From assembly GCA_021776235.1 (NCBI GenBank), contig JAJFGG010000010.1, positions 10,478 through 74,477 on the forward strand: DNA of 64,000 bases. Reading direction: 5' to 3'. Origin of the DNA: Alphaproteobacteria bacterium. GTDB taxonomy: Bacteria > Pseudomonadota > Alphaproteobacteria > GCA-2731375. Position numbers and translations under genes: made by a program. Under the pieces are notes generated by a model. That model saw nothing but the letters and a program-made list of their open reading frames with translations, had not been told where the DNA came from and did not search any database. This document shows, in pieces, positions 1,443 to 54,194 of this stretch. Positions within the stretch are counted from its first letter, which is position 1. Each line of letters begins with the position of its first letter.

Positions 1443-1570
1443 TAAGAAATTGAACAGCTAGGACTTAGCGTTGGTCCCAAAAGCAAACATCCAAATGCCA
1501 AAGCAACCAAGATCCAATGAGCATTCTGAACGAAAAGCAAGGGATCGCGGCCACGGCCCCTCTTTACATC

Positions 1571-5597: not shown

Positions 5598-5708
5598 GGC
5601 TCACGACCTCCTGTTTGGCATCGTCTTGCACAAAGTAATCATCCAGTCAGGCATAACTTATCCTAGAGAATGTCGAGGCTGGCTGGGCTCTGGTCTCGGG
5701 CGAACAAA

Positions 5709-6365
5709 TCAGCCGTCCAGATCCAGCGCCGCCGCCACGACCATTCTGGTGACATTCTCGACCAAAAGATCAATCTCCCGATCCCTCAAATGCCATTGGC
5801 GGAACGGCATAAAAGCCGTCAGAAACACCACGACTTCGGCCAACAAGCTGTAGCGCCCATGATCATCCTCGCGGCCTGTCAGGCGCCCAATATCGAAGGC
5901 GACCTTATCCACCAGGTCGGCATCCCTTTGCAGCAGCCGGCGCCGGTCCTCCACCGGCAGTCGCCCCGCTTCACGGTAGGCCAGCAAAATCGCCTGTGAA
6001 TTCTCGCGCCATGCAAACTGCAGGAAATTGCTGATATAGCTTTCAAGGTCAGTCGCGCTCGCGGTGTTGAATTCGGCCCGCATCGCATTGTCCGCACTGG
6101 GATTGTGCATGCGGTCGAGGATCCTGCGCAGGATATCCTCCTTGCCTTTCACATAGTCGTAGATCGACGCCTGGTTGACGGCCGAACGAGCGCAAATATC
6201 GCGTATGGTGGTGCTGCCATAGCCTTTTTCCAGAAACAGACCGAGGGCGGCATCCATGATTTGCTGACGTCTTCGGCGAACCAGTTTGCCGTCCTTGATG
6301 CGGCCACCATAGTCGTCAGAATCCGTCTGATGAGCGGCAGACGATGTCTTTTTTGTTTCGGGCAT
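5709..6365 (-). CDS. TetR/AcrR family transcriptional regulator
   Basis: 218 aa. N-terminal HTH region GYGSTTIRDICARSAVNQASIYDYVKGKEDIL. Sits 3 nt downstream of the ABC ATPase gene. Confidence 0.8.
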   Translation of the reverse strand: MPETKKTSSAAHQTDSDDYGGRIKDGKLVRRRRQQIMDAALGLFLEKGYGSTTIRDICARSAVNQASIYDYVKGKEDILRRILDRMHNPSADNAMRAEFNTASATDLESYISNFLQFAWRENSQAILLAYREAGRLPVEDRRRLLQRDADLVDKVAFDIGRLTGREDDHGRYSLLAEVVVFLTAFMPFRQWHLRDREIDLLVENVTRMVVAAALDLDG

Positions 6366-6367
6366 TT

Positions 6368-7360
6368 TTAATCAAACAGGTGACAGGCGACCGAATGGCC
6401 ATTGGCGGCTTGCTTGATTTCCGGTTCCTCCGTCCTGCAGCGATCCGTCACATAAGGGCAACGTGGATGGAAATGACAGCCGCTGGGTGGATTCAACGGG
6501 CTGGGCACCTCTCCTTCCAGGAAGATATGCTCTCGCGCGGCCTCGGCCCTCGGATTGGGAATGGGAACGGCGGCGAGCAAAGCCTTGGTGTAGGGATGCT
6601 TTGGCTCGTGGTACAAATCCAGGCGGCTCGCGGACTCGACGATTTTACCCAGATACATGACCACGATCCGGTCGGAGATATGGCGCACAACCGCAAGATC
6701 ATGGGCGATAAAAAGATAGGTCAGGCCCAGCCGTTCCTGCAGCTCTTCCAGGATGTTGATGACCTGCGCCTGGATAGAGACATCAAGCGCCGAAACGGGC
6801 TCGTCACAGACGATAAAGTCAGGATTTACGGCAAGGGCGCGGGCGATCCCGATACGCTGTCGCTGGCCGCCGGAAAACTCATGCGGGTAGCGGCCCCGCA
6901 TGGCGGGGTCCAGGCCGACTATTTCCAACAATTCCGCTATTCTTTCGTCGAATTCGGCGCGGCTACCCGCCATGTCGTGCACCACAAGCGGCTCGCCAAC
7001 TATGGTAGCGATGGACATCCGGGGATTCAGCGAGCCAAAAGGATCCTGATAGATCATTTGCATACGGCGGCGGACCGACCGCATTTCCGTCTTTGTATAA
7101 TTGGCGATGTTTTCGCCTTCGAAAATGATTTCTCCCGCCGTGACGGGCAACATGCGCAGGATCGCCAGGCCGGTGGTGGATTTGCCACAGCCGCTTTCAC
7201 CCACGAGGCCGACCGTTTCGCCGCGGTGCGCATGAAAACTGATGCCGTCAACGGCCTTTATGTCGCCGATGTGCCGCTTGAACAGGATGCCCTTTGCCAC
7301 CGGAAAGTGCACTTTGAGGTCACGCACCTCGAGAATTCGTTCTTCATTGCCCGTTGACAT
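6368..7360 (-). CDS. ABC transporter ATP-binding protein, DppF/OppF-like (system 1)
   Basis: Walker [13 protein letters not shown] signature LSGGQRQR. Walker [14 protein letters not shown]-terminal oligopeptide-type extension. Start chosen at [19 protein letters not shown], which overlaps the upstream ATPase stop by ~17 nt. The ORF track extends to 7504. Confidence 0.85.
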
Positions 7361-8321
7361 CAATCCAACACGCCTTCTTATGTTCATCAGCAACGGTTTC
7401 CAGTTCCGGGCGCTCCACGGCGCATCTGTCAATGGCATGGCGGCAACGCGGCCGAAATGGGCAACCGGGCGGGAGTTTCGCGAGATTTGGCGGCTGGCCT
7501 TCAATGGGGATCAGCTTTTCCTTGACGTCGTCATCCAGGTTCGGAATAGACGCCATGAGGCCGATGGTATAGGGGTGGCGCGGATCATCGTAGATACTGA
7601 TCGCGGTGCCGGATTCCACGATGCGTCCGGCGTACATCACGTTGACATGATCGGCGTACCGCGCCACTACGCCAAGATCATGGGTAATCAGGATCTGTGC
7701 GGCCCCTTGTTCCTGGGTCAGTTCCTTCAATAATTCCAGAACCTGCGCCTGCACTGTGACATCCAGTGCCGTGGTGGGTTCATCCGAGATGATCAGCTTT
7801 GGACTGCAGGATAGCGCCATGGCAATCATCACCCGTTGCCGCATGCCGCCTGAAAACTGATGCGGATAATCGCGCGCACGATTTTCACCGTCGGAAATTT
7901 GCACCTTGGCCAAAAGCTCGACGCAGCGGGCCATGGCGGCGTCCCGTGGCAAATTCTTGTGCACCTCGATGGGTTCGGCGACTTGTTCGCCAATGGTCAA
8001 AACCGGATTAAGGCTTGTCATTGGTTCCTGAAAGATCATGGCGATTTGATTACCCCGGACTTCGCGCACTTCTTCATCGCTCAATTCCAGCAGATCGCGG
8101 CCATCGAAAATGACCTCCCCATCGATAATTTCGCCCGGGGGACTGGGGATCAGGCCAAGTATGGAGAGCGCGGTAATGCTCTTGCCGGAGCCGCTTTCAC
8201 CGACAATGGCAAGGGTTTCGCCAGCCTGCACATCGAAACTGACGCCGTCCACGGCCTTCACGACTCCCGCATCCGTGAAGAAATGGGTCTTCAGGTTTTT
8301 GACTTGCAGAATGGCTGGCAC
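7344..8321 (-). CDS. ABC transporter ATP-binding protein, DppD/OppD-like (system 1)
   Basis: Walker A GESGSGKS. Signature FSGGMRQR. Walker [13 protein letters not shown]. Confidence 0.85.
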
Positions 8322-8472
8322 GAAAAAATCCTCTTGCGCTCAAAATGGCGGGCAATTCAAGCGCCGGCAAACTCGGGTCTATGGAATAATCAAATGAATG
8401 ACGATGCCGTGGCCGGGATGTGGGCCATTTGCCCACATCCCGGTGCGTCCACGATCATGGTAAGCGACAGGC

Positions 8473-10179
8473 TTAGAAACCCATCTTTTTCTTCATCTCC
8501 TGATCGATCCAGATCCGGGCATAAATCGGGCCTGGACGAACCGCGCCCACGCGCAATTCACCATTGTAGTTTTTCACCCATGGCCAATGGGCGCGATAGA
8601 ACACATCGGTCGGCAACCAGACATGGGGAACCTTTTCCTCGATAATGTAGCGGTTCAGGGCGACGAGTTCGCCTTGTGCCTTCGCCTCGTCGGTTTCCTT
8701 CGACATCGCCGTCCAACGTTTGTCAAAGCCTTCGTCCGCATGCATCGCCGGGTTCCAGGTCTGTCCGCTCACAAAACTCTTGCGCAGCACCTGAATTGGG
8801 TTGCCGCTGCCGTTGTTCATCAGATAACCGACGGACTGGGTCTCCTTGCGCATCTGTGAGCGGAAGGCGGCATATTCCAGCGGCTTGAGATCTATGGTGA
8901 CGCCAATCCGCTGATAATAAGCCTGCAGCATGGGAACCAGATCAACGTGATAGGGCGAACATGTGCAATACATCATCTCGAATGTAAGGCCATCCGGATA
9001 ACCGGCTTCCGCCAACAGGGCCTTGGCCTTCTTCGGGGCGTAGCTGAACAGCTCCTGACCCTTGGGCGAAAGCTTGTCGATCGGCGTATAGACGCTTTTC
9101 CAGGCGCTCGAGAACGGATAATTCAACGACGAGCCATCGCCATTCAGCAAGGTTTGCAGGATCTCCGGCTGGTTCACCGCCAGGTTCATCGCGCGGCGGA
9201 CCCGAACGTCGTTGAACGGCTTCTTGTCGTTGCGCAACGCAATGAACGTGCCCGTCGTGGACAGGCCTTTCTTTAGAACAAGCTCGGGCGCGGATTTCTT
9301 CAATTCATCCACGAACTGCCAGCGGATATTCTCCATGATGTCCGCTTTACCCGTGCGGATATTGGCAATCGCGGTCGCTTCGTCCTTGACCAAATGATAG
9401 ACCAGCTTGTTATTGAGCGGGAGCTTGTATGACTTGCCGCCGATTTTCGCACTGTCCCAATAGTCGTCGTTCTTGACATAGGTCTGATGGCTCGATTTCA
9501 CGACTTCCGTCACCTTGTAGGGACCGGAACCGATCGCATTCTTCCAATCGGCCCGCGCCTTGTCTTCAAGCTTGTGATACTCGGGGGGCAAAATAGCCGA
9601 GAAATAACCCCAGGCCAGGCGATAGGCCCAGTTGGCGTTGTATTCGTTCAGATGGGCGATGACCGTGTGCTTGTCTTTCGCTTCCCATCGGTCGATGAAG
9701 GCCCAGTAGTTGGGGATTTTGCGTTTCAACGTCCACATATGGGTGAAATGGTAGGCCACGTCGTCGGCGACGATTTCACGCTTTTCCATGACCCCCGGCT
9801 TCGTGGGCCAATACACACCCTTGCGGAGCTTGAACACCAGCTGCAGCGGATCTTTCTTCAGTTCAACGCTTTCAGCGATTTCACCGCGCATTTGATCCGG
9901 CGGGATATAGGCCTGAGCGACAAAATCATTGTCGTTGCTGCCACCCGGTCCGCGCGCTAAATCACCCGCGAACAGTTGATCCAGATGCAAACCATCATGG
10001 TTTTCCTTCCATATCCATTTTTGATAATCCCAGGACAGCGCGTTCAGCGTCCGGTAGTAGGATATGACATTTACCGTGCCACCCAGCTGTGGTTCCTCGG
10101 CGGAAGCGGCGCTGACCGCCCCCAGCGAAATGGTCGCGGCACATGCCCCGACCAGCCATTGTTTGATAGTCGACCTCAT
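8473..10179 (-). CDS. ABC transporter substrate-binding protein, family 5 (peptide/nickel type) (system 1)
   Basis: 568 aa. Signal peptide ending AASA. Length and overall composition typical of SBP_bac_5. Confidence 0.8.
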   Translation of the reverse strand: MRSTIKQWLVGACAATISLGAVSAASAEEPQLGGTVNVISYYRTLNALSWDYQKWIWKENHDGLHLDQLFAGDLARGPGGSNDNDFVAQAYIPPDQMRGEIAESVELKKDPLQLVFKLRKGVYWPTKPGVMEKREIVADDVAYHFTHMWTLKRKIPNYWAFIDRWEAKDKHTVIAHLNEYNANWAYRLAWGYFSAILPPEYHKLEDKARADWKNAIGSGPYKVTEVVKSSHQTYVKNDDYWDSAKIGGKSYKLPLNNKLVYHLVKDEATAIANIRTGKADIMENIRWQFVDELKKSAPELVLKKGLSTTGTFIALRNDKKPFNDVRVRRAMNLAVNQPEILQTLLNGDGSSLNYPFSSAWKSVYTPIDKLSPKGQELFSYAPKKAKALLAEAGYPDGLTFEMMYCTCSPYHVDLVPMLQAYYQRIGVTIDLKPLEYAAFRSQMRKETQSVGYLMNNGSGNPIQVLRKSFVSGQTWNPAMHADEGFDKRWTAMSKETDEAKAQGELVALNRYIIEEKVPHVWLPTDVFYRAHWPWVKNYNGELRVGAVRPGPIYARIWIDQEMKKKMGF

Positions 10180-10268
10180 TGTATTCCTCCTGTCATGAGA
10201 TATTGGCGATGTAGTGCTTGATCAAAGTCCGTCTCTACCTTTCGAAATTCACCTGCACAGCTTGCCAT

Positions 10269-11255
10269 TCAGGTCCTCCGCTTGTTCCGGGGCTTGCCGC
10301 CGCCGTAGCGGCCGCCGCCGCCGCGCAGCCGGGGGTCAAGTAAATCCCGCAAGGCGTCGCCAAACATGTTGATGCCGTACACAACGATTGTCAGCGCAAC
10401 GCCGGGCAGAATGGCCAGCCATGGGGCCAGAAACATATAGCTCTTGCCTTCGATGCTGAGCATGCCGCCCCAACTGGGGGCTGGTGGCGGGATGCCCAGA
10501 CCTAGGAAACTCAAACCGGACTCCGCCAGGATCACCGCCGCCAGGCGCGTGGTGAACAGCACGATCACCGGCGCCATGATGTTGGGCAGGATATGGCGCA
10601 GCAATATGCGCGGCGTCGAAGCGCCGATCGTTTGCGCCGCGTGCACATACATATTCTCCCGGGTCGACAAAACGGCGCCGCGCACAATTCGCGAACCGGC
10701 AATGCCGTACAGCAGTCCCAGCACCAGAATGACCTGCCACATACCCGGCCCGAGAATCGAGACCGCCACAATCAGTATGATCAGGTCCGGGAAGCTCATC
10801 CAGGCATCGACAAATCGCTGTGATGCCATGTCAATCCGGCCGCCAAAGAAGCCGGCCATCAGGCCCAGGGTAAGTGAAATGATGATGGACAGCGTCGTCG
10901 CCGAAAACGCAATGATGACGGAAATCCGCGCCCCATACACAATGCGGGAAAAGACATCCCGGCCAAGCTGGTCCGAGCCCAGCAGGTAGGTGCCCGTTTG
11001 CTTGTTGAAATCAGCGTCGAAGTAGGTGTATTCGCCACCCGGCGGCTTCAATTTATCCAGGGGATGAATAACGTTGAAACCCTCCGTCGCTATGAAGTCC
11101 GCGAATATCCCGGTCAACAGAAGAATAAGGAAGATAATTGCGCCAAAGGCGCCCAGGGGCTTCTCGCGAAAAAGTCGCCCAAGAAACTCGAGCACAAGGC
11201 TCCGCGGCCTGCTTGTTTTCGCCAATCCTTGTGCCGATGCTGTCGCTTCCGTCAT
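10269..11255 (-). CDS. ABC transporter permease, DppC/OppC-like (system 1)
   Basis: 328 aa. Multi-TM protein. Conserved EAA-type loop region (AAQTIGASTPRILLRHILPN). Confidence 0.85.
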   Translation of the reverse strand: MTEATASAQGLAKTSRPRSLVLEFLGRLFREKPLGAFGAIIFLILLLTGIFADFIATEGFNVIHPLDKLKPPGGEYTYFDADFNKQTGTYLLGSDQLGRDVFSRIVYGARISVIIAFSATTLSIIISLTLGLMAGFFGGRIDMASQRFVDAWMSFPDLIILIVAVSILGPGMWQVILVLGLLYGIAGSRIVRGAVLSTRENMYVHAAQTIGASTPRILLRHILPNIMAPVIVLFTTRLAAVILAESGLSFLGLGIPPPAPSWGGMLSIEGKSYMFLAPWLAILPGVALTIVVYGINMFGDALRDLLDPRLRGGGGRYGGGKPRNKRRT

Positions 11256-40445: not shown

Positions 40446-42716
40446 TCAGCGGCGCGCGGCCTCGTGGGCGGCCAGGGCGGCCATGTTGACCAGATCGCCA
40501 ACCGAGGCGCCCATGGCGGCGATCTGCACCGGCTTTGACAGGCCCACCAGGATCGGCCCAATGACCGTACAGCGGCCCAGTTCCTGCAACAGCTTGGACG
40601 AGATGTTGGCCGAATGCAGCGCCGGCATAATCAGAACATTGGCCGGCCCGGACAGGCGGCAAAAAGGATAGAGCTCCTTCAGTTCCGGGTTCAGGGCCAC
40701 ATCCGCCGACATTTCGCCATCATATTCAAAATCCGTGACCCTGGAATCCATCAGTGAAACCGCCTCGCGCACCCGGTCGGATGTGGGCCAGCCAGGGTCG
40801 CCAAAGTTTGAATAGGACATCATCGCCACCCGGGGCTCGTGTCCCAGGCGGCGGGCGACCTCGGCTGTTTGCATGGCAATATCGGCCATCTCCACCGAGG
40901 ACGGCAGCTCGTGCACGGTGGTATCCGCCACGAATACCGTCTGGCCGCGCGCCAGCACCATGGACAAGCCAAAAACCCGCCGCCCTGATTGCGCGTCAAT
41001 CACCCGGCGCACGTCGTCATAGGCGGCGTTGTAGCTGCGTGTCACGCCCGTCACCAAAGCATCCGCATCCCCCACCGCCACCATACAGGAGGCATAGATG
41101 TTGCGGTCTTGATTGACCAGGCGCTGGCAATCCCGGTACAGATAACCGCGGCGCTGCAAACGCTCGTACAGGAAGTCGCTATAGCGGTCGTTACGTTCCT
41201 GGGTAAGGCGCGCGTTTAGGATTTCCACGCCTTCCAGGCTGTCCAGGCCCAACCGTTCCATGGTCTCGGAAACCCGGTCCTCGCGGCCGATCAGCACCGG
41301 CATGCCATAGCCGGATTCGTAAAAGCTGAGCGCGGCGCGGATCACCCGCTCCTCCTCGCCCTCGGCAAAAACCACCCGCTTGTTCTCGGTCCGCACCTGA
41401 TCAAAGATCAATTGCAGGGTACCGGCGGTGGGGTCGAGACGGCGGCGCAGCTCCAGGGCATAGGCCGCCTCGTCTTCGATCCCATGGCGGGCAACGCCGG
41501 TGCGGATCGCCGCCTTGGCCACGGCCATGGGAATTTCCGTCATCAGCCGCGGATCAAAGGGGGCGGGGATGATGTATTCCGGACCATACCGCAGGTTGGC
41601 CTTGCCATAGGCTTCCGCCACCTCGTCGGGGACATCCTGGCGCGCCAGTTCCGCCAGAGCCTGGGCCGCGGCGACCTTCATATCTTCGTTGATGGAAACG
41701 GCGCGCACATCCATGGCGCCACGGAAAATATAGGGAAAGCCCAGGACATTGTTGACCTGATTCGGATAATCGGACCGCCCCGTAGCCACGATGGCGTCAC
41801 CGCGAACTTCGGCGACTTCCTCGGGCGTGACCTCCGGATCGGGATTCGCCATGGCAAATATGATCGGCTTTGGCGCCATGGAGGCAACCATGGCCGGCGA
41901 CAGGGCGCCACGGGCGGACAGGCCAAAGACCGCGTCGGCGCCATTCATGGCCTCTTCCAAGGTGCGCAGATCGGTCGCCACCGCGTGGGCCGATTTCCAC
42001 TGGTTCATACCGTCTTCCCGGCCCTGATAGATCACGCCCCTGGTGTCGCAGATAATGACATTATCGCTCTGCATGCCCAGAGCCTTGACCAGTTCAACGC
42101 AGGCGATGCCGGCGGCACCGGCCCCGTTTACGACCAGCTTGGTGTCCGCGAATTCGCGCCCGGTCAGATCCAGAGCATTGATCAACCCGGCGGCGGCGAT
42201 GATTGCCGTACCGTGTTGATCATCGTGAAAGACGGGGATATCCATCAATTCGCGCAAGCGATGCTCGATCACGAAGCAATCAGGCGCCCGGATATCCTCC
42301 AGATTGATGCCGCCAAAGCCCTTGCCCAGAAACCGCACGCAATTGACGAATTCGTCCACGTCTTCGGTATCGACCTCAATATCAATGGAATCCACGTCCG
42401 CGAAGCGCTTGAACAGCACTGCCTTGCCTTCCATCACCGGCTTTGCTCCCAGCGGGCCCAGATTGCCCAGGCCCAGCACCGCCGTGCCGTTGGAGATAAC
42501 GGCGACCAGATTACCCTTGGAGGTGTAGTCATAGGCCGAATCCGGGTCTTCGACGATGCGCAGACAGGGCGCCGCCACGCCGGGCGAATAGGCCAGGCTC
42601 AAATCCCGCTGGGTCGCCATGGGTTTGGTCGGCGAAATGGACAGCTTGCCGGGCCGCCCCTCGGCATGAAAGCGCAAGGCCTCCTCATTGCGATAGGTAT
42701 TGTCCATATCCACCAT
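40446..42716 (-). CDS. maeB: NADP-dependent malic enzyme with C-terminal phosphotransacetylase-like domain
   Basis: 756 aa. Malic-enzyme N-terminal motifs LSLAYSPGVAAPC and VVNGAGAAGIA. PTA-like C-terminal half. Confidence 0.9.
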   Translation of the reverse strand: MVDMDNTYRNEEALRFHAEGRPGKLSISPTKPMATQRDLSLAYSPGVAAPCLRIVEDPDSAYDYTSKGNLVAVISNGTAVLGLGNLGPLGAKPVMEGKAVLFKRFADVDSIDIEVDTEDVDEFVNCVRFLGKGFGGINLEDIRAPDCFVIEHRLRELMDIPVFHDDQHGTAIIAAAGLINALDLTGREFADTKLVVNGAGAAGIACVELVKALGMQSDNVIICDTRGVIYQGREDGMNQWKSAHAVATDLRTLEEAMNGADAVFGLSARGALSPAMVASMAPKPIIFAMANPDPEVTPEEVAEVRGDAIVATGRSDYPNQVNNVLGFPYIFRGAMDVRAVSINEDMKVAAAQALAELARQDVPDEVAEAYGKANLRYGPEYIIPAPFDPRLMTEIPMAVAKAAIRTGVARHGIEDEAAYALELRRRLDPTAGTLQLIFDQVRTENKRVVFAEGEEERVIRAALSFYESGYGMPVLIGREDRVSETMERLGLDSLEGVEILNARLTQERNDRYSDFLYERLQRRGYLYRDCQRLVNQDRNIYASCMVAVGDADALVTGVTRSYNAAYDDVRRVIDAQSGRRVFGLSMVLARGQTVFVADTTVHELPSSVEMADIAMQTAEVARRLGHEPRVAMMSYSNFGDPGWPTSDRVREAVSLMDSRVTDFEYDGEMSADVALNPELKELYPFCRLSGPANVLIMPALHSANISSKLLQELGRCTVIGPILVGLSKPVQIAAMGASVGDLVNMAALAAHEAARR

Positions 42717-43100: not shown

Positions 43101-45827
43101 ATGAGCACAGCAGCGACGGCGGGGACTGACAAGCCGACGCCCATGATGGAACAGTTCCTGGCGATAAAGGCGCAGTACGACGATTGTCTGCTGTTCTACC
43201 GCATGGGCGACTTCTATGAGATGTTTTTTGATGACGCGGTCAAGGCGGCCGAGGCCCTGGATATTGCCCTGACTAAACGGGGCAGGCATCGGGGCGCCGA
43301 TATCCCCATGTGCGGCGTACCCGTACATGCCGCCGATAGTTATCTGGCGCGGCTGATCCGCAAGGGTTTCCGCGTCGCCGTGTGCGAGCAGACGGAGGAC
43401 CCGTCGGAAGCGAAAAAGCGCGGCGGCAAAACCGTGGTCCGGCGCGCCGTGGTGCGCCTGGTGACGCCGGGCACCTTGACCGAGGAAACCTTGCTGGACG
43501 CCCGCGCCAACAATTATCTCGCCGTCCTGGCCCGGGTACGGGGCGCCAATGCCCTGGCCTGGCTGGACCTGTCCACGGCGGAGTTCCTGACCGCGCGGGT
43601 TGATACCGGGGCGATTGCCTCTGAACTGGCCCGCCTGTCGCCGGGGGAACTGGTGGTTTCGGATGCCCTGCTGGCGGCCCCCGAGGCCGAGCCGGGGGGC
43701 GGCGAATGGCGCCAGGACTGGGCTGACCGGATCACGCCCTATGCCGACGCGCGCTTTGATTCAGGCTCGGGCGAAAGACGCCTGCAAGCCTTGTACAAGG
43801 TCGCAGCCCTGGATGCCTTTGGTGATTTCAGCCGGGCCGAATTGGCGGCCTGCGGCGCCCTGGTGGAATATCTGGAAATGACCCAGGTGGGCCGCCTGCC
43901 CCGCCTATCGCCCCCGCGCCAGGTTGAAACCCGCGAGACCATGGCGATCGACCCCGCGACCCGGCGCAATCTGGAGCTGACCCGAACCCTTGCGGGCGAT
44001 ATTCCCGGCAGCCTGCTGGCCACCATCGACCGCACGGTGACAGGCGCCGGAGCCAGATTGTTGATCCAGCATCTTTCGGCGCCGCTGATGGCGCCCCAGG
44101 CGATCAACCGCCGCCTGGACATGGTCGACTATTTCATTGCCGGTGAACGCCTGCGCCAGGATTTGCGCGGCATTTTGCGCCAGGCTCCGGATATGGCGCG
44201 GTCCCTGGCCCGCCTGGGGCTGGAGCGCGGCGGGCCGCGGGATCTGGCCGCCATTCGCGATGGGCTGGCCGCGACCCATGGCTTGGGCCGGCTGTTGGCG
44301 GCAGCCGAACTGCCCCTGCCCCCGGACGGCATCATGGCGGCGGCCAGGGATCTGGGCCAACACGATACCCTGGTGGACGAACTGTCCAATGCCCTGGCCG
44401 CGGAACTGCCCTTGAGCAACCGGGATGGCGGCTTCATGGCGCCAGGTTACCGCCCCGACCTGGATGAATTACGCAGCCTGCGCGATGCCTCGCGCAAGCT
44501 GATTGTGGGCTTGGAGGCAGACTATCGCCGGCAGGCCGGGATCGACAACCTGAAGATCAAGCATAACCGGGTTCTGGGCTATTTCATCGAGGTTGCGGCC
44601 CGCCGCGCCGATGGCCTGATGGCGGCGCCTTTGAACGAGGTCTTTATCCATCGCCAGACCATGGCCAACGTGGTGCGCTTTTCCACCGTCGAACTGGGCG
44701 ATCTGGAACGTCGCATCGCCGAGAGCGCGGACAAGGCCCTGGCCCTGGAACTGGAATTATATTCCGAACTGGCGGCAGGCGTTTTGGCGCAGGCCACGGC
44801 CATCGGCCTGGCCGGCGGGGCCATGGCGGCTCTGGACGTCGCCGCCGCCAACGGTGAAATGGCCGCATCTGAACGTTTCTGCCGGCCCGTGGTGGACAAC
44901 AGCCAGGCCTTCCATATCGAGGGTGGCCGTCACCCGGTGGTCGAGGCGTCCCTGATGGCGCGCAACGAAGGCGCCTTTATCGCCAACGATTGCGTTTTGG
45001 GCGGCGAGGCGGGCGCTGGGACGGATGATGAAGCCCGGATCTGGCTGGTAACCGGCCCCAACATGGCAGGCAAGAGTACCTTTTTGCGGCAGAACGCGTT
45101 GATTGCCATTCTGGCCCAGATGGGCAGCTATGTCCCGGCCACCCGGGTTCGCATGGGGTCCGTGGACCGCCTGTTCAGCCGGGTCGGCGCGGCGGACGAT
45201 TTGGCGCGGGGGCGGTCCACCTTCATGGTGGAGATGGTGGAGGCCGCGGCAATTCTGAACCAGGCCTCGCCCCGGTCCCTGGTGATCCTGGACGAGATTG
45301 GCCGCGGCACGGCAACCTATGACGGCCTGTCCATCGCCTGGGCGGCGGTGGAACATCTGCACCAGGTGAATGGCTGCCGGGCCCTGTTCGCGACCCATTA
45401 TCACGAGCTGACCGCCCTGGCCGGCAAACTGGATGGCCTGGCCAATGTCACCATGCGGGTCAGGGAGTGGCAGGGCGATGTGGTCTTCCTGCACGAGGTC
45501 GCGCCCGGCGCCGCGGACCGTTCCTATGGCATCCAGGTCGCCAAACTGGCGGGGCTGCCCGCCTCGGTCATCGGGCGGGCCGAGGTGGTGCTGGCCGGCC
45601 TGGAAGATGGCGAGGCCCCCGGCCGCAATATCGGCCGCGAGGGCGCGGCCCGCCTGGCCGACGATCTGCCCCTGTTCGCCGCCACCCGGCCTACCTCGGG
45701 CAGCAGCAAAAAGCAAAACGAGCCATCCGCCCTGGAACAGGCCCTGGCCGACGTCCTACCCGACAACCTCAGCCCCCGCGAGGCCCTGGAGCTGATCTAT
45801 CGGTTGAAGGCCGCGGCGGAAGACTAA
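43101..45827 (+). CDS. mutS: DNA mismatch repair protein MutS
   Basis: 908 aa. N-terminus [34 protein letters not shown]. Walker [14 protein letters not shown]. Motif [23 protein letters not shown]. Confidence 0.95.
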
Positions 45828-45844
45828 TATTCTGGGTGTAATGG

Positions 45845-46387
45845 ATGAAGGTACCAGCCGACGAAGTTATCCTTACTGATCGCTGCCGGCTACGGTACCC
45901 GGATGAGGCCGACATCCCGCATGTCTGGTCTGCCTCGCTTGTGCCTGGGTTCAACGACGGCTTGGCCTGGGAGCACCCCAAGAATGCCAAAGAGCTGGAG
46001 GCTAGGCTCAAGGAGACGAGGGAAGCCTGGGCCAAAGGCAGCGCCTATGCCTGGACAGCCGAATGCCCTGAAACCGGCAGCTTCATCGGCCGAATTGTCA
46101 TCCGCCGTGAGGACAAGCCAGGGGCATGGGCAATAGGTTACTGGATACACCCGGCGCACCAGGGAGCCGGCTATGCCACGGAAATCGCCTCGGCGATTGT
46201 GAATTTCGGATTTTGCCGGTTAGGCGCGACCGCCATTCGCGCGGCGCATGCCACCTGGAACGATGCCAGCGGGAAGGTTCTGCAACGTATCGGCATGAGA
46301 TTCGTAGGCTCCAATCCAAAGGGCTTTCAAAAACGCGGCAAATGGGTGGAGGAGTACGAATACGAAATCCACCCTACACCGCGGTGA
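45845..46387 (+). CDS. GNAT-family N-acetyltransferase (RimJ/RimL-like)
   Basis: 180 aa. Acetyl-CoA binding region [27 protein letters not shown]. Confidence 0.85.
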
Positions 46388-46481
46388 TGCCGCCGTCGAC
46401 GACCAGTTCGGCGCCGGTGACGTGGCGGGCTTCGTCGGACGCCAGGAACAGGATGCAATTGGCCACGTCCACCGCCTGGGC
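46388..46481 (-). pseudogene. 94-bp duplicated fragment of the 3' end of the SDR gene at 51149-51961
   Basis: 46388-46481 matches 51163-51256 at 93 of 94 positions. It continues straight from the GNAT stop exactly as in the native GNAT'/SDR junction. Confidence 0.75.
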
Positions 46482-46967
46482 GGCGGTGGAGCATTTACAC
46501 CAGGTGAATGGCTGCCGGGCCCTGTTCGCGACCCATTATCACGAACTGACCGCCCTGGCCGGCTAATTGGATGGCTTGGCCAACGTCACCATGCGGGGCA
46601 GGGAATGGCAGGGCGATGTGGTCTTCCTGCACGAGGTCGCGCGCGGTGCCGCGGACCGTTCCTATGGCATCCAGGTCGCCAAGCTGGCGGGACTGCCCCC
46701 TTCGGTCATCGGCCGGGCCGAGGTGGTGCTGGCCAGCCTGGAAGATGATGAGGCTTTCGGCTGCAATGGCGGCCGCGAAGGCGCGGCCCGGCTGGCGGAT
46801 GACCTACCTCTGTTCGCCGCCACCCGGCCGACCTCGGGCAGCAGTAAAAGCCGCAACGAGCCGTCGGCCATGGAACAAGCCCTGGCCGACGTTCTGCCCG
46901 ATAGCCTCAGCCCCCGCGAGGCCCTGGACCTGATCTATCAATTGAAGGCAGCCGCAGAGCTAGATTG
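46474..46967 (+). pseudogene. diverged partial duplicate of the mutS 3' end (last ~160 codons) with in-frame stop
   Basis: About 90% nt identity to 45336-45830. The stop-interrupted copy decodes [52 protein letters not shown]... A TAA at ~46564 replaces the Lys codon. The fragment begins inside a microhomology shared with the SDR fragment. Confidence 0.85.
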
Positions 46968-47170
46968 ATTGGCATCGAAGCCAGTCTCTACACGATCCCG
47001 CAAGTTTCAAGCGTCACAGTGTTCGAAAATACACCACTCCTTCGAATGCTTAGCGAGTCTGAGCGCACAAACAATAGCCACCCCATAGCTAACCAATTGA
47101 ATCTATTCGACTAGCAATGAGGCAGTGATCGTAGCGTCCCCTTTCTCCACAAGATAGCATCAATGACAAG

Positions 47171-47470
47171 GTGCTGGTAACGGAACGGAGCGCCTCCTTT
47201 GGCCACAATATTTTAGTCTGTGATATGCGTACCATGCCGGTATTGAAAGGTTTGAGCCAACCGGTGGTGTTCGATGCCACCCATTCGGTGCAGCAGTCGG
47301 GCTGCCAGGGTGGCTCTCGGGCGGGCAACGGGGAATGGTGCCCGTGCTGGCCCGCGCCGCGGTTGCCATTGGGGTCGCGGCGTGCTTCATGGAAAGTCAT
47401 GAAGACCCCAGCAGTGTGCTTGCAAGGACACGGCGACATGACCTCACCAATCTGTGCGCGTCAACTAGTG
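47171..47470 (+). pseudogene. remnant of 3-deoxy-8-phosphooctulonate synthase gene (kdsA-like), 5'-truncated and frameshifted
   Basis: Frame 1 reads [41 protein letters not shown], matching the KdsA ...LCERG...VIFDVTHSLQ...GGxSGG region. After a frameshift, [21 protein letters not shown] matches the downstream KdsA ...ARAAVAxGxxGLFxExHPDP region. Confidence 0.6.
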
Positions 47471-48573
47471 TGACGCCGCGCCCACACCACCGGAAGTAAT
47501 GCAGAAATTATTGCAAATAACAAAAAATAGACCCCCAGCCCAGAACTAATAGCTAACCCATTTAATGGAGGACCGCACGCTGCACCAAAAAGTATAGCCG
47601 CCGTAAGACGCTGTCCAACAAATTGAGGGTTCGTTCTGGCAACTGATGCCTGCAGTTTCGCCGCCAATGTGTTGAATGTTAGCTCGAAACAAGTCAGTGC
47701 GAAAAAGAATATTATATTGCTTCGCGCCAAGTATATGACCAAGATGCTAACAGAAAGAATGAGACCCAGGATCAGAAATCCACTCTTTCTATCCTGGTGA
47801 CGCGTTCTTGACGCCGCATACAAAAGCCATGAACCGCTGACGAGCTTCATGCCAACAAGAGACCAAACCGTGCCTCCCACCGCCATACCATGGGCAACTG
47901 CATTTTCGACCAGAAAAGCGAGGAAACCAGTTTGGCCGGCAAACAGGACGAATACCACGAGTAGTCCGCTATATCGCGGACCATTCGGTGCGGCTCCGCT
48001 ATCTCTTGGGCTGTGGGTTGTAAAGGATTCTACTGGCTTATAAAAACTTAGACCTACAATCAACGCAATGGAAAACGAGAGTGATAGAAACAACACAGTC
48101 GATCCGTAGGATTCGAGCGCTTTGCCAATTTCGAGAATTGCCGCAACAACACCAGCCAACAGAAGAACTATAGCTAGGCGCAGCGTAAATGCAAATGCCT
48201 GACGACAATAATTTGACGCAACATAGATACCCAAGTACTGAAATAATCCACAACTTAAACCTGTGAGAAACCACCCAATATACAATACGAGCTCCGCATT
48301 GTACAGTGACACAGCCAACCCCAACAACAGCAACACCGCAGAAAAAAACGCTGTTCTCACTCCTATCGAGTGAATATTCGCTAATGGTAATAGCAGCGAT
48401 GTTAGAAGTTGGCCCCCCAATAGAAAGAAAGCAATCCACCCGGCTTTTGCTGCTGAAATTCCTAGACCAGTGGCAACAACATGAACAATTAGCGGCATTA
48501 AGTGTAATGGGAGAGATCCAACGGCCGATAATAAGCTAGCCGAAAGAAGATTTCCTAAACCCTTCGGCATCAT
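47461..48573 (-). CDS. polytopic membrane protein, possibly MFS-type transporter/exporter
   Basis: 370 aa. ~10-12 predicted hydrophobic helices. No diagnostic catalytic motif. Low GC relative to the flanks. Confidence 0.55.
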
Positions 48574-48866
48574 TTTATCAAATGCAACATTAACAGTTCT
48601 TGAGAGCTTGTTGGCGCTGTCCTCGGTAGGCTACAGTGTTCGCCAATCGTAAAAAAGGATGTAGTTCGAGACTTAGTTTGGTGCACTTGAACCTATGGCT
48701 ATCTGAGTAAAAGATGAATTGGCTAGCCTACTGGCGAATAGACATTCTTTTATTTACCTCTGGCCGTATGGAACTTCGGTCGATAGACAAAATAAGCAAC
48801 TGGCATGCACATGGGCCCGACATTTCCTTCTAACACACAAGTCGTGAACAATTCGATCTCATATGA

Positions 48867-49655
48867 CTAATTGTTATCAGTCTTGGATCGACGACGAGCA
48901 CTTACGCCATAAGACCCAGTCGTGTGATCATCAGCCTTTGGATCTGCGTCTCTAATTGTTTTACGGAAGCCGCTCCAATCGTCATTCGACATCTCAGCAA
49001 TTCCGTCGGGATTAGATTGATTTGTGTCAATGTTATTTCTGCCTAACGTCGCTTCAGAGTAACACTCTCTCCGTACTGGCTGAACTTGGAATAACGGTTT
49101 CCACTTCGAAATCGTAATTTCACGGTTAGTAGAGATCAGCCGTATATTAACAAAGAGGGGAAGGGGTTTAAAACGGTCAGTCTCGACGATGCCTTCATAA
49201 CAAGCAAAGCTGGTACTTTGCGGAAAATTGGCCAATGGACGTATGAGGACGCTCCAGTCTGAAACGGTACTTACGAACAATCCGGACCAGATTTGCACTA
49301 TACCAGGTACGAAAAGACACGACAGGTATGGTGGTGCTCGTCCCTGAAGGTCGACAGGTGCAAATTTATTCCACTGATCCAAAAATTCGTCCTCGAATTG
49401 TACCGATGACAATGCGCGCCAGTCATCTTCATGTCTATAAAAAACTTCAGAGCCGGTCCACATCAAACCAATATCAGTTGGTGGGAATACATACCAGCCG
49501 TAGGCAGAAGCCGTCCGCACTGGTTCACAATATTGATATGACGCAACCGGTAATGTTCCCAATGCGGATTTGTCGGCTCGCATGGGCGGGATTGCGTCCG
49601 GATAGATATTCTGAAATCTAACTATATTTTCCATGGAACTTCCAACCATCTTCAA
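48867..49655 (-). CDS. hypothetical protein (no recognisable domain)
   Basis: 262-aa ORF in the low-GC islet. Same orientation as the flanking genes, and the coding-like codon usage is consistent along its length. The probable start is the internal MENIVRF. Confidence 0.5.
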   Translation of the reverse strand: MKMVGSSMENIVRFQNIYPDAIPPMRADKSALGTLPVASYQYCEPVRTASAYGWYVFPPTDIGLMWTGSEVFYRHEDDWRALSSVQFEDEFLDQWNKFAPVDLQGRAPPYLSCLFVPGIVQIWSGLFVSTVSDWSVLIRPLANFPQSTSFACYEGIVETDRFKPLPLFVNIRLISTNREITISKWKPLFQVQPVRRECYSEATLGRNNIDTNQSNPDGIAEMSNDDWSGFRKTIRDADPKADDHTTGSYGVSARRRSKTDNN

Positions 49656-49680
49656 CCCCGCCCGAGAAATACTAATTCGT

Positions 49681-49941
49681 CTACGTTTTGCGGATGTGCG
49701 TCGCCACTCTAGGAGAGATTAAGCCTCCGCCTGTCTGTGTTCCTGTGGATGTTTTCGTGGTGGCAGTCTTCATGACACGCGCGTAGTGCGTCGCCACCTT
49801 CGGAGAGATAACTCCACCGCCTGTCTGTGTTTTTGCGGATGTTTTCGGGCCGGCGGCATTCGTGATGCGCGCATGGTGGGTTGCGACTTTTGGAGAGATA
49901 ACTCCTCCCCCTATTTGCGTCTTGGCTTTTTGCATCGTCAT
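49681..49941 (-). CDS. small internally repetitive protein (3 x ~28-aa repeats: TQ(I/T)GGG(V/L)ISP(K/R)VATH..)
   Basis: 86-aa ORF fully covered by three 84-bp tandem DNA repeats. The repeat phase preserves the reading frame. It is the first gene after the AT-rich region. Confidence 0.5.
   Translation of the reverse strand: MTMQKAKTQIGGGVISPKVATHHARITNAAGPKTSAKTQTGGGVISPKVATHYARVMKTATTKTSTGTQTGGGLISPRVATHIRKT
49690..49941. repeat. imperfect 84-bp tandem repeat, 3 copies
   Basis: Units start near 49690, 49774 and 49858. Each shares the core GTCGCCAC(C/T)T..GGAGAGAT(A/T)A(C/G)(T/C)CC(A/T)CC(G/C)CCTGTCTGTGT. Confidence 0.8.
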
Positions 49942-49944
49942 ACA

Positions 49945-50171
49945 CCTTCTCTATTGGTCCAAAGAACGCCTACTATAGGCAGTAAAAATATACCTTGAGT
50001 GAATCATAATTGCAATATTAAATTCGTATCTATTATTAGAATATTTTTATGAAAGTAATACTCTCAATTCACGTATAAATACATTATTGAGTTGTAAATC
50101 ATATTATTACTCTTATTTTATTTGACATAATGACAACTATATCTCTATTTTTGTGCATAAGTATTCGATAA
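49945..50171. promoter_or_regulatory. extremely AT-rich (~25% GC) intergenic block, putative divergent promoter / xenogeneic-silencing target
   Basis: About 230 bp of A/T runs (TATAAATACATTATTGAG, TTATTTTATTTGACATAATGAC) in an otherwise >60% GC genome. It sits upstream of the minus-strand three-gene islet operon and the plus-strand small ORF. Confidence 0.4.
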
Positions 50172-50417
50172 ATGAGCATTAATGGTATGTTAGGAAGCTG
50201 TTTTGAGAGTCGGGGCCGGAGATTACGCGGCGCAAATTTCTGCGATGATTTTGCACAATTTGTACCTCAACCACCTGAGGATCAGTCTAAAGTTGTAGCC
50301 ACCAGCGCTCATAATCGAATCATTGGCGTCACCCCGCACAATTGGGGTCAGCACAACTGGGATCTACCATCGAATTTTGAGGAATTCCGCTGCTGTTGTG
50401 CGGTGGGTATGTGGTGA
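50172..50417 (+). CDS. hypothetical small ORF (81 aa, Cys-rich C-terminus FRCCCAVGMW)
   Basis: An ORF only. It starts right at the edge of the AT-rich block. There is no motif support. Confidence 0.25.
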   Translation: MSINGMLGSCFESRGRRLRGANFCDDFAQFVPQPPEDQSKVVATSAHNRIIGVTPHNWGQHNWDLPSNFEEFRCCCAVGMW

Positions 50418-50519
50418 ACGCGCGATTGCGAGTTATCCACATATCCAGCGCTCACGATGCAAGATTGTTTATTCGTTTGCGGATGGCGGTTGTGGCGGTC
50501 GGGGTATAGGCTGTCACTG

Positions 50520-51162
50520 ACGGGAGTGTGGCTGCGCCCGCAATTTGGCGGCGGTGATGCCACCAGGCCTACGGCCAGTTCATGGCCGACGGGACGCGTG
50601 ACCGCGGCTTTGTTCTAGTCGATGGCTTGCAGGGGGCGGTGACGGCGGACAGTGTTCTGGGTGGGGAAGGCTGTCGCGCCGGCCTGCCGGCGCCTATTGC
50701 CAGGCGGGTAGCGAGGTGGTGAAGCGCCAGTGCCATCTGACCCGGCCCTCTCTGGCCGGCCTGCGTGCAGGGGCGGCGAGCAACGAGCGGACCTGGATGC
50801 AAGCGCAACAGGCGACGTCTATGCCCGGACCGCTAAGTCCCTATACACAAGCTTGTTCATAGGTCGAATTGTCACCCGCCGCGAGGGCAAACCAGGAGTC
50901 TGGCCAATCGGAGTCTGGATCCATCCAGAGCACCAGGGGAACGGCTATGCCACACAAAATTGCGTTCGCCCTCGTAGACTTCGGGTTTATGCGGCTGGGC
51001 GCCAGTGCCATTCGTGCCGCACACACGACCTGGAACGATGCAAGCCGGAAGGTTCTTCAACGCATCGGCATGAAATTCATCGGCATAAATTCAAAGGGTT
51101 TCCAAAAGCGCGGCACTTGGGTCGAGGAATACGGGTATGAAATCCGCCTCACAGCGCCGTAA
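50520..51162 (+). pseudogene. degraded second copy of the GNAT acetyltransferase gene (frameshifted; recognisable from ~50800)
   Basis: FIGRIVTRREGKPGVWPIGVWIHPEHQGNGYAT and [55 protein letters not shown] are ~80% nt identical to 46082-46387. Contains a 1-nt indel. The 3' end overlaps SDR-A convergently by 14 nt. The left boundary is uncertain. Confidence 0.65.
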
Positions 51163-51946
51163 TGCCGCCGTCGACGACCAGTTCGGCGCCGGTGACGTGG
51201 CGGGCTTCGTCGGACGCCAGGAACAGGATGCAGTTGGCCACGTCCACCGCCTGGGCCGGCTCGCCCATGGGGATGCGCCGGATCGAGGCCGCCAGGGCTT
51301 TCTCAGGGTCACCGCCGCCCATGCGCATGACCAGATCGCCCATGTCGGTCCGGATGGTGCCCGGATGCACGGAATTACAGCGGATGCCCAGGCCCTTGCG
51401 GGCGCAATCGATGGCCACGGATTTGCTCATCTGCCGCACCGCGCCTTTCGAGGCGCCGTAGGCCACCGCGCCGGGCGTGCCCACCAACCCGGCGATGGAG
51501 GACAAATTGACGATGGAACCGCCGCCCGCGCCGCCCTTCTCACGGCCGCCATCCGCGGTCATGGCCGCCACGCCATACTTGCAGCCCAGGAAGACACCTT
51601 CCACATTTACCGCCTGCACCGCGCGCCATTGTTCCAGGTCCGTCTGGTCCAGGAACTGATAGGGCGTGGTGGCAAGGATGCCTGCGTTGTTAATCAAAAT
51701 ATCCGGGCGGCCGTGGTGCGCGGCCACAGCCTGCATAATACGCTGCCAATCCGCTTCCTGGCGCACGTCCTGCTGCAAAAAGGCCGCCTTGCCGCTCAGT
51801 TCGTCAGCCACGGCCTGGCCCGCCTCGGTGTTCACGTCGGTGATGGTGACCATGGCGCCTTCTTCCGCCAGCAGGCGGGCCGTGGCCCGGCCTATGCCGG
51901 TGCCCCCGCCCGTTACAATGGCGACCTTGCCTTCGACCCGGCCCAT
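51149..51946 (-). CDS. SDR-family oxidoreductase (paralog A)
   Basis: TGGGTGIGRA cofactor motif. Catalytic YGASK. Start taken at MGRVEGK. The ORF track extends to 51961. Confidence 0.85.
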   Translation of the reverse strand: MGRVEGKVAIVTGGGTGIGRATARLLAEEGAMVTITDVNTEAGQAVADELSGKAAFLQQDVRQEADWQRIMQAVAAHHGRPDILINNAGILATTPYQFLDQTDLEQWRAVQAVNVEGVFLGCKYGVAAMTADGGREKGGAGGGSIVNLSSIAGLVGTPGAVAYGASKGAVRQMSKSVAIDCARKGLGIRCNSVHPGTIRTDMGDLVMRMGGGDPEKALAASIRRIPMGEPAQAVDVANCILFLASDEARHVTGAELVVDGGITAL

Positions 51947-51965
51947 CTGCAAACCTCCCAAAGGC

Positions 51966-52775
51966 CTAAATAGCTGTCATGCCGCCATCGACAACCAACT
52001 CGGCGCCGGTCACATGGCGAGCCTCGTCAGAGGCCAGGAACAAAATGCAATTCGCCACATCCACCGCCTGACCCGGTTCGCCCATGGGTATGACCTTGAT
52101 CCGGGCCGCCCATTTGGCGTCCGCATCGCCAGCGCCCAGGTTCATGACCTGATTACCCATATTTGTGACGATGACGCCCGGGTGCACGGAATTACAACGG
52201 ATGCCCAGGCCTTTGCGGGCGCAATCGATGGCCACGGACTTGGTCATCTGACGCACCGCGCCTTTCGAGGCGCCATAGGCCACCAGATGCGGCGTACTGA
52301 TCAGACCGGCGACGGACGACATATTGACGATGGCGCCGCCGCCGTCACCACCCCGAGGGCGTTTTTGGGCCCGGCCACTGTCGGCTGTCATGGCCGCCAC
52401 TCCATATTTGCAGCCCAGGAAGACACCTTCCACATTGACCGTCTGCACGGCCCGCCATTGCTCCATATCCGTATCGGCCAATTCCTGGCTGTTGCCAGTA
52501 GCCAGAATACCCGCGTTGTTGATCAGAATATCCGGGCGGCCGTGGCGTTCCGCGACCGCCGTCATCAGGTTTTGCCAGCTCGCCTCTTCCCGCACGTCAT
52601 GTCGTACAAAGGCCGCATCGCCGCCCAATTCAGCAACCACGGCCTGGCCGCTTTCGGCATCAAATTCCGCGATGGTGACAATAGCGCCTTCTTCCGCCAG
52701 GCGGGTGGCGGCAGCCCGGCCAATGCCCGTACCACCGCCCGTAACGATCGCAATTTTTCCCTCTACGCGGCCCAT
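51966..52775 (-). CDS. SDR-family oxidoreductase (paralog B, ~75% aa identity to A)
   Basis: TGGGTGIGRAAA and YGASK motifs. A 4-nt gap separates it from paralog A. Confidence 0.85.
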   Translation of the reverse strand: MGRVEGKIAIVTGGGTGIGRAAATRLAEEGAIVTIAEFDAESGQAVVAELGGDAAFVRHDVREEASWQNLMTAVAERHGRPDILINNAGILATGNSQELADTDMEQWRAVQTVNVEGVFLGCKYGVAAMTADSGRAQKRPRGGDGGGAIVNMSSVAGLISTPHLVAYGASKGAVRQMTKSVAIDCARKGLGIRCNSVHPGVIVTNMGNQVMNLGAGDADAKWAARIKVIPMGEPGQAVDVANCILFLASDEARHVTGAELVVDGGMTAI

Positions 52776-53417: not shown

Positions 53418-54194
53418 GTGGCCATGAACCTGTTTGATTTGACCGGCAAAGTTGCCGTTGTTACCGGATCCACCAAAGGTATTGGCAGAGCCATGGCCGA
53501 AGCGATGGCCGAGCACGGCGCCAGAGTAGTGATTACCTCGCGCAAGGCGGATCTGTGTGACGAGGTCGCTGCCGGGATCAATGCTTCGGGCGGCGAAGCT
53601 ATCGCAGTGCCGTGCAATGTCTCGCACAAGGATCAGATGGAAAACCTGTTGGAAACGACGCGCAGGACCTGGGGGCAGATCGATATTCTGATCCTGAACG
53701 CCGCCGTCAATCCGTACTACGGCTCGGCCCTGGACATTCCGGATTCCGCTTTCGACAAGACGATGGACGTCAACATCAAATGCAACCTGGCCTTTTGCCG
53801 TGAAGTAATACCCGAGATGCAGGCCCGCAAGGACGGCGCCATCATGATCGTATCCTCCATCGGCGGCCTGCGCGGCAGCACCGTTCTGGGCGCCTATTGC
53901 ATATCGAAGGCGGCTGATATGCAGATCGTGCGCAATCTCGCCGCCGAATTCGGCAAGGACAACATCCGCGTCAACTGTATCGCGCCAGGCCTGGTCAAGA
54001 CCAACTTTGCCCGCGCCCTGTACGAAGATCCGGAAATCGCCGCCGCCCGCTCCAACGCCACGCCCATGCGGCGTTTGGGCGAACCCGAAGACCTTGCCGG
54101 GATCGCAGTTTATCTGGCATCGAAGGCCGGCTCATGGACCACCGGTCAGGTTTTCTGTATCGATGGCGGCGTAACCACTACCGGTGAAGGCTGA
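53418..54194 (+). CDS. SDR-family oxidoreductase (paralog C)
   Basis: VTGSTKGIGRAMA cofactor motif. YCISKAA catalytic Tyr/Lys motif. Confidence 0.85.
   Translation: MAMNLFDLTGKVAVVTGSTKGIGRAMAEAMAEHGARVVITSRKADLCDEVAAGINASGGEAIAVPCNVSHKDQMENLLETTRRTWGQIDILILNAAVNPYYGSALDIPDSAFDKTMDVNIKCNLAFCREVIPEMQARKDGAIMIVSSIGGLRGSTVLGAYCISKAADMQIVRNLAAEFGKDNIRVNCIAPGLVKTNFARALYEDPEIAAARSNATPMRRLGEPEDLAGIAVYLASKAGSWTTGQVFCIDGGVTTTGEG

Follow-up and report, generated by a model that had tools for sequence, protein, structure and literature searches.

How does a working gene come to be followed by a damaged second copy of its own 3' end, with the end of a neighboring gene fused to that copy? The question is raised by a locus in a 64-kb stretch of an alphaproteobacterial contig (JAJFGG010000010.1; "the window", in whose coordinates all positions are given). 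Here, an intact mutS and an intact GNAT acetyltransferase gene are followed by the orphan 3' end of a short-chain dehydrogenase gene, SDR-A, which passes directly into a stop-interrupted duplicate of the mutS end, mutS'. An island of low G+C content (GC), a truncated second GNAT gene (GNAT') and the complete SDR-A come after it. Our best reading, to which we assign a probability of roughly 0.62, is that a diverged relative was the source of about 4.7–5.3 kb of DNA, captured through pairing of homologous sequence in SDR-A combined with a join at a microhomology; the captured DNA would comprise the mutS 3' end, the island, the truncated GNAT and perhaps part of SDR-A. The recombination process is a known one, of which the locus is a well-preserved natural example; it brings in no new mechanism or function.

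The features on which the argument rests are, in order:

43101–45827, plus strand: resident mutS, intact, 908 amino acids (aa), with all five MutS domains (Pfam)
45335–45343, plus strand: CGCCTGGGC within resident mutS, homologous to the point at which the presumably captured mutS' starts
45845–46387, plus strand: resident GNAT acetyltransferase, intact, 180 aa (Pfam Acetyltransf_3, 1e-23)
46374–46481, minus strand: orphan SDR-A 3' end including copy c1, from its minus-strand translation and 93/94 match to c2
46388–46481, minus strand: c1, the left anchor copy of a 94-nucleotide (nt) direct repeat, by alignment
46473–46481, no strand assigned: putative illegitimate joint at CGCCTGGGC, common to SDR-A and mutS, by sequence and alignment
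46482–46967 (homology from 46467), plus strand: mutS', the presumably captured mutS 3' end, last ~165 codons, by alignment
46968–50790, no strand assigned: low-GC island without a homolog in any related locus fetched (composition, family profiles)
50795–51162 (start approximate), plus strand: GNAT', a 5'-truncated pseudogene, by alignment
51163–51256, minus strand: c2, the second copy of the 94-nt repeat and the 3' end of intact SDR-A, ending with CGCCTGGGC at 51248–51256
51149–51961, minus strand: SDR-A, an intact short-chain dehydrogenase (Pfam) with a likely start that gives 265 aa

The alignments give this anatomy directly, and all three resident genes (mutS, GNAT and SDR-A) are intact. 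An earlier note, made from the letters of this DNA, had described the 94 nt after the GNAT stop as a near-perfect copy of the segment at 51163–51256; c1 and c2 are indeed identical at 93 of 94 positions, with A at 46458 against G at 51233 as the sole mismatch and a longest perfect run of 71 nt. At 51162/51163, identity jumps sharply from ~75% to 99%. The same note had the sequence switch, at a motif carried by both parents, into a stop-interrupted copy of the mutS end with ~90% identity, and this description also stands. We find CGCCTGGGC at 45335–45343 in mutS, at 51248–51256 in SDR-A and at 46473–46481 at the hybrid switch point. From there, mutS 45329–45820 and mutS' 46467–46958 match at 438 of 492 positions (89.0%) without an indel, the members of the pair being spaced by 1138 nt; mutS' has a single in-frame stop (TAA, 46564–46566) and retains its own natural stop at 46965–46967.

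On either side of the 9-nt exact match, the joint is flanked by unrelated sequence, SDR-A on one side and mutS on the other. The shared motif reaches 14 nt with one mismatch when read from 46468, TCCA[C/T]CGCCTGGGC. For this base composition, we calculate a chance of ~1e-5 for a 9-nt overlap at a random junction. The join thus appears to be microhomology-mediated, yet its site is apparently one of many possible and not itself special, because 44 positions in SDR-A share a same-strand 9-mer with mutS. A near-identical anchor on one side and a microhomology joint of 9–14 nt on the other make up the footprint of homology-facilitated illegitimate recombination (HFIR), as which the earlier note had recognized it.

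Next to the repeat, the convergent coding regions of GNAT and SDR-A overlap by 14 nt, the SDR-A stop lying inside the GNAT end (51149–51162 and 46374–46387). This overlap differs at 5 of 14 positions between the copies, as against 1 of 94 in the adjoining repeat, a contrast that would fit a constraint from one gene on one copy and from the other gene on the other.

Relatives of the window were found by a full-length MutS protein search, at 95, 89, 89, 85, 84, 83 and 82% identity; the nearest named one is a Rhodospirillaceae metagenome-assembled genome at 80%. A scan of species-representative genomes with the C-terminal 308 aa of MutS, a region in which conserved motifs dominate the score, gave no more than 71% as the best among the matches listed. 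Exact look-ups of the window's MutS, of SDR-A (as 270 and as 265 aa) and of the island's membrane protein gave no database entry. The nearest relatives are two metagenome contigs, L082 (Logan) and L170 (JGI), which are 98.9% identical to each other and 92–94% identical to the window at the nucleotide level. The empty site is directly visible in both: mutS, GNAT and SDR-A are contiguous, as the earlier note had predicted for close relatives, with SDR-A running well past the 94 nt. Relative to these two contigs the window has lost no resident sequence; 94 nt are duplicated instead. The resident GNAT is 88% identical in nucleotides to that of L082, which has the same position. In L082 (3376–3891) and L170 (893–1408), GNAT ends at a premature TAG, giving 171 aa as compared to 180 aa.

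In further relatives, the contents of the gap between mutS and SDR-A vary. The two genes stand tail to tail, without GNAT and with stops 10–105 nt apart, in L083 and L084 (89%) and in L088 and L089 (83%), where SDR-A is followed by SDR-B, CopD, another short-chain dehydrogenase and GlnD. L085 (89%) has an AbiEii pair in the gap (8130–9891), L087 (82%) has a GNAT and an FAD oxidoreductase after mutS (3427–5485), and L086 (85%) an unrelated gene (9730–10557). The convergent mutS/SDR-A gap is therefore a lineage-wide insertion hot spot, because relatives hold other cargo, or nothing, at the same place.

The mutS' branch and the resident flanks

In its branching, mutS' falls outside the pair of window mutS and L082: it is 89.0% and 87.8% identical in nucleotides to window mutS and to L082, respectively, whereas these two are 92.3% identical to each other, and it keeps outgroup-shared, ancestral residues at sites where both members of the pair have the same derived state. 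The position of GNAT' is similar, as sister to window GNAT and L082 GNAT together. We polarized the substitutions on the mutS' branch with up to five outgroups and obtained 17 synonymous and 9 nominally non-synonymous changes (6–9 after caveats, since one of them is at the junction base, which comes from SDR-A, and the ambiguous last codon holds another two). The neutral expectation is 27–32% synonymous, and the binomial probability of at least 17 in 25 is 2e-5 to 2e-4. We conclude that mutS' diverged for the most part inside a working mutS of another lineage, D, and not as a decaying local duplicate, because a 3' fragment without 2.2 kb of the gene cannot be under such selection.

What followed appears to have been brief. 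The nonsense codon, a V-to-G and a P-to-R change at positions invariant across all relatives, and the lack of indels point to a short decay only, of ~4–7 substitutions by our own estimate; as it has no indels, mutS' would have been a fragment only since recently.

These results also settle how far the mosaic, foreign origin proposed in the earlier note can be upheld. The proposal itself gains support from the 17 against 6–9 changes and from the position of mutS' outside the pair. The argument on which it had been based, unequal divergence of the pieces (99/90/80%), is weak, because the rank SDR end > mutS > GNAT is largely one of gene-specific rates between orthologs; between the window and L082, for example, GNAT is 88% and the mutS 3' end 92% identical. 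The value of ~80% for GNAT' moreover holds only if the 94 nt are included, the GNAT part alone being ~73–75% identical. In GNAT', the first ~65 codons are missing and the reading frame is shifted once, by +1, near 50955.

The same evidence bears on an in-situ origin, which the earlier note had named as an alternative. A unit of 1138 nt (mutS 3' end, GNAT and the first 94 nt of SDR-A) could have undergone a microhomology-mediated tandem duplication, with the island entering the second copy afterwards and the redundant copies decaying. The geometry is exactly head to tail, with a novel joint at CGCCTGGGC and the 1138-nt spacing of the mutS pair, and the unequal identities of the three pieces do track the gene-specific rates seen between orthologs. 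Yet the synonymous excess on the mutS' branch is at odds with a 3' fragment, which cannot be selected as a protein. Since mutS' and GNAT' branch outside the pair of the window and L082/L170, the duplication would have to predate that split and then have been lost in L082/L170, and c1 and c2 would need later homogenization. The substitution pattern and the branching thus disfavor this origin, and we consider it improbable.

Could mutS' still do something? We regard it as a far-fetched idea that the retained copy is not inert and modulates the mutation rate, through an open reading frame (ORF) or through recombination between mutS and mutS'. The ORF restarts right after the TAA of mutS' (46567–46968, 133 aa) and covers the end of domain V and the C-terminal oligomerization region. 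Were the idea true, its putative product would be a dominant-negative fragment that loosens mismatch repair and the barrier to recombination; alternatively, recombination between mutS and mutS' (492 nt, 89%) upstream of the TAA would yield a mutator allele. Such modulation would help explain why DNA of diverged relatives has repeatedly been trapped in the gap.

The sequences on the two sides of the block have another affinity than the block itself. Resident mutS shows no breakpoint: each 300-nt segment of it is 91–96% identical to L082, and the two have 159 mismatches and 86 shared-derived sites. In SDR-A, the phylogenetic comparison of the window with L170 places a breakpoint at ~51690–51730 (Fisher P = 3e-8 at the best position). 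To the right of ~51720, there are 10 mismatches and 17 shared-derived sites with L170, at a divergence of 4.1% as opposed to 16–22% to outgroups; to the left, there are 59 mismatches and 4 shared-derived sites, at a divergence of 10.3% from L170. These patterns assign both outer flanks, but not the block between them, to the resident type, R, which is sister to L082/L170. Next to the insert, 540 nt of SDR-A are discordant; they could represent the anchor's donor tract. We also considered the SDR-A breakpoint as the anchor crossover of the window lineage and dropped this as unproven, L170 being anomalously diverged even from c1. The SDR-A 3' end of L082/L170 is unusually diverged in general, with 6–7 differences in 94 nt versus 2–5 for more distant genomes.

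The high identity of c1 and c2 can be judged against the same segment in relatives. Over the 94 nt, the window has 2–3 differences from L083 and 4–5 from L085, two genomes whose mutS 3' ends are 11–14% diverged from its own; over all genomes with 2–5 differences, this divergence is 11–16%. The segment thus seems to evolve slowly, and a single difference in 94 nt appears to be within expectation for the divergence of a donor from its recipient. Neither gene conversion nor a difference in age is needed to explain the 93/94 identity, since the segment is slow-evolving. For the step from 75% to 99% identity at its border there is an alternative: the heteroduplex at the anchor may have been repaired to the recipient type, GNAT' being too divergent to pair.

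Proposed capture of the block and competing explanations

What we infer concerns the mechanism (RecA-type pairing and an illegitimate join), the route of DNA entry and the extent of the donor tract into SDR-A. The recipient would have been a chromosome on which mutS and GNAT point toward the oppositely oriented SDR-A, as kept in the nearest relatives. The island would first have entered the mutS/GNAT gap in lineage D, whose mutS is ~11% diverged in nucleotides, and truncated the GNAT there. In a second step, a linear or circularized D fragment, reaching from inside mutS_D over the island and GNAT' up to or into the SDR-A 3' end, would have entered an R-type cell. One of its ends would have paired homologously with the resident SDR-A, while the other, in mutS_D, would have joined the resident strand at CGCCTGGGC, 86–94 nt inside SDR-A; with a joint 94 nt inside the gene, 94 nt would therefore flank the insert as direct repeats. 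In a variant with the same product, the joint would have formed first in a circular intermediate, followed by single-crossover integration in the 94 nt. The imported mutS end and GNAT' would be dead passengers. Because 94-nt direct repeats flank the 4775-nt insert, its precise excision through recombination of c1 with c2 is predicted.

Several points weigh against the capture of the block. No genome of lineage D was found and no homolog of the island above 47%, so that the donor arrangement is itself a reconstruction. Among database proteins, we found no GNAT homolog closer to GNAT' than the window's own GNAT; a scan for the donor lineage with the GNAT/GNAT' alignment gave a best match of only 44%, and a search of JGI metagenomes with DUF6065, a family encoded in the island, found nothing. 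Classical HFIR usually deletes recipient DNA at the joint, whereas this locus has kept all of it and gained a second copy of 94 nt. That c1 and c2 match at 93 of 94 positions can be reconciled with the divergence of donor and recipient only because the segment is slow-evolving. Further, the breakpoint at ~51,700 cannot be assigned to the window lineage: within the 94 nt, L170 differs from c1 at 7 positions and c1 from c2 at 1, a pattern better explained by a recombinant L082/L170 lineage or by later homogenization of c1 and c2. Finally, the structure is known from an assembled contig, so that an assembly artefact is formally possible.

In that last case, the contig would be a chimera of co-occurring strains R and D, or contain a chimeric read junction. 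There are few close relatives, the source may be metagenomic, and the arrangement is known from assembled sequence only; also, the only record of the island's membrane protein is that of the NCBI source, and there is none from the Logan run with the GNAT contig. That contig, L001 (SRR15505512, 949 nt), is identical to window positions 45468–46416. Its first base is also that of a 37-nt run in common with mutS', and its end coincides with the final 31-mer found in copy 1 alone, ahead of the stretch in common with c2; these break points suggest that both contexts are present in the read set of SRR15505512. A 9-nt overlap is moreover far below the k-mer or overlap length of any assembler, and two misjoins would be required, since both flanks are of resident type. 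Nor does mutS' look like the end of the working mutS of a second strain, as it carries a stop and radical substitutions at invariant positions. We therefore hold an artefact to be unlikely.

Capture of the block also has to be weighed against its mirror image, in which the genome is of type D (mutS_D, island, GNAT', SDR-A) and the incoming DNA consists of the 3' part of mutS, GNAT and 94 nt of SDR-A. Recombination would have been homologous in mutS and illegitimate at CGCCTGGGC, pushing the old mutS end downstream and possibly rescuing a TAA-bearing mutS. This would produce the same final architecture; the model is recognized by orphan 3' ends that follow a full-length gene (PMC5361080), horizontal exchange of mutS alleles is known (PMC4209514, with reference to Denamur 2000 and Brown 2001), and mutS' does have a nonsense codon. 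One stop among the ~4–7 changes after the event is, on the other hand, expected from decay alone. Incoming DNA as a new 3' end of the gene should leave a breakpoint, and there is none anywhere in mutS. The right flank is of resident type from ~51720 on, where the ratio to the outgroup distance is 0.2–0.25, versus ~0.8 for type D. Such a displacement is thus quite unlikely.

We deem it very unlikely that a recent in-situ tandem duplication was followed by homologous replacement of the second copy by a D-type allele with its island, which would explain the 93/94 match, c1 and c2 having then been duplicated recently within one genome, and also the difference of L170 from both copies, but confines the left crossover to the 24 nt between the homology start at 46467 and the first D-type base at 46491 and takes two rare events where one suffices.

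The island and the neighboring genes

The island has a GC of 31–50% over most of its length, as compared to 60–70% in the flanks, and is foreign by composition. It begins directly after the natural stop of mutS', in the gap that varies among relatives. With the exception of a frameshifted kdsA scrap, its ORFs are intact. Its contents and the genes around the locus are:

~47210–47420, plus strand: frameshifted kdsA scrap (3-deoxy-8-phosphooctulonate synthase profile)
47461–48573, minus strand: membrane protein ORF, 370 aa, nearest homolog 47% identical
48867–49655, minus strand: DUF6065 ORF (Pfam)
49681–49941, minus strand: 86-aa ORF of 90-nt tandem repeats (~77% identical; repeats at 49696–49926), no family match
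50420–50790, no strand assigned: stretch of 63–68% GC, no homolog in the window or in the fetched loci
40446–42716, minus strand: malic enzyme gene, the upstream neighbor of mutS
51966–52775, minus strand: SDR-B, a tandem paralog of SDR-A (~75% nucleotide identity)
after SDR-B in the locus order: CopD-like gene

No machinery of a mobile element was found. None of the ORFs in 46968–50800 has an integrase or transposase domain in Pfam or NCBIfam, and neither a tRNA nor terminal inverted repeats were found at the island. Searches with Pfam, NCBIfam and PADLOC recovered only DUF6065 and the kdsA scrap, with no defense genes by PADLOC, and Rfam gave only a sub-threshold chance match. The island has no match in any of the related loci fetched, by blastn or tblastx. 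We rejected a site-specific island or integrative element, as the locus is without integrase, recombinase and tRNA, and its 94-nt direct repeats consist of coding sequence from the end of SDR-A.

Joined across its frames, the kdsA peptide matches positions 176–243 of the 273 profile positions (E = 7e-27). The scrap comprises ~70 of 273 residues and has 57–59% GC inside the low-GC island, and the window contains no other kdsA; it may be a second scar of illegitimate recombination. A stretch of 31% GC (49950–50250) comes next after the 86-aa repeat ORF. Homology to GNAT starts only at ~50795, after the stretch of 63–68% GC.

Outside the island, the window holds a cluster of three short-chain dehydrogenases, SDR-A and SDR-B (51149–52775) and a third at 53418–54194. 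The 3' end of SDR-B is also similar to the 94-nt repeat (84.6% over 91 nt). On the other side of the locus, the malic enzyme gene of L088 is separated from mutS by an ABC peptide-transporter operon (1097–6810).

Comparison with known systems

With microhomology-mediated tandem duplications, which arise by replication slippage or template switching, the locus shares head-to-tail repeats and a novel joint at a 9-nt microhomology. It differs from them in that the second unit is an allele of another lineage with 3.8 kb of extra DNA.

A closer parallel in location is the mutS-rpoS (o454-nlpD) region of E. coli and Salmonella, for which polymorphism and mosaic mutS alleles are described (PMC4209514, with reference to Denamur 2000 and Brown 2001). 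In both cases, the insertion hot spot that directly follows mutS varies between strains, and sequence from the mutS of another lineage is present. In contrast, our locus is from an unrelated, Rhodospirillaceae-like alphaproteobacterium and has another neighbor gene, SDR-A. Its working mutS is not mosaic, the foreign mutS being a separate dead fragment.

Orphan 3' gene ends are also known from the effector-immunity arrays of Rhs, contact-dependent inhibition and type VI secretion systems, where they have been explained by a displacement model (PMC5361080). As in those arrays, the full-length gene and its cargo come first, then an orphan 3' fragment left of a diverged allele, which has old cargo of its own, and one-sided homologous recombination together with an illegitimate join serves as the explanation. 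The direction differs: here, the orphan and the island appear to be incoming and the full-length gene resident, both flanks being of resident type. Further, mutS is a housekeeping gene without a polymorphic toxin tip, and the locus records a single round, not an array.

The best match is HFIR, in which a homologous anchor is combined with a joint at a microhomology of 3–10 nt (PMC6382021). The process is summarized there for natural transformation of Acinetobacter baylyi, Streptococcus pneumoniae and Pseudomonas stutzeri, with de Vries & Wackernagel 2002, Prudhomme et al. 2002 and Meier & Wackernagel 2003 given as the original reports. In our locus, too, a single anchor is homologous (the SDR-A 3' end), the one joint lies at a microhomology that is short and rich in G+C, and otherwise non-homologous DNA is integrated beside the anchor without site-specific machinery. 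The differences are that this is a natural footprint and not an experimental event, that its 9 nt are at the long end of the range in that summary, and that the joint lies inside the anchor gene, so that the recipient keeps all its DNA and has 94 nt of the target twice. Moreover, the foreign DNA represents a diverged allele of the same locus. HFIR footprints, well characterized by laboratory work, can rarely be read in the genomes of wild organisms, for which one usually lacks the parental sequences. At this locus, the two parents of the joint lie within 6 kb, close relatives have the empty site, and the substitution pattern dates the death of the mutS end to the recent past. The locus is thus a clean natural example of how the neighborhood of a housekeeping gene may gain an island without the machinery of a mobile element.

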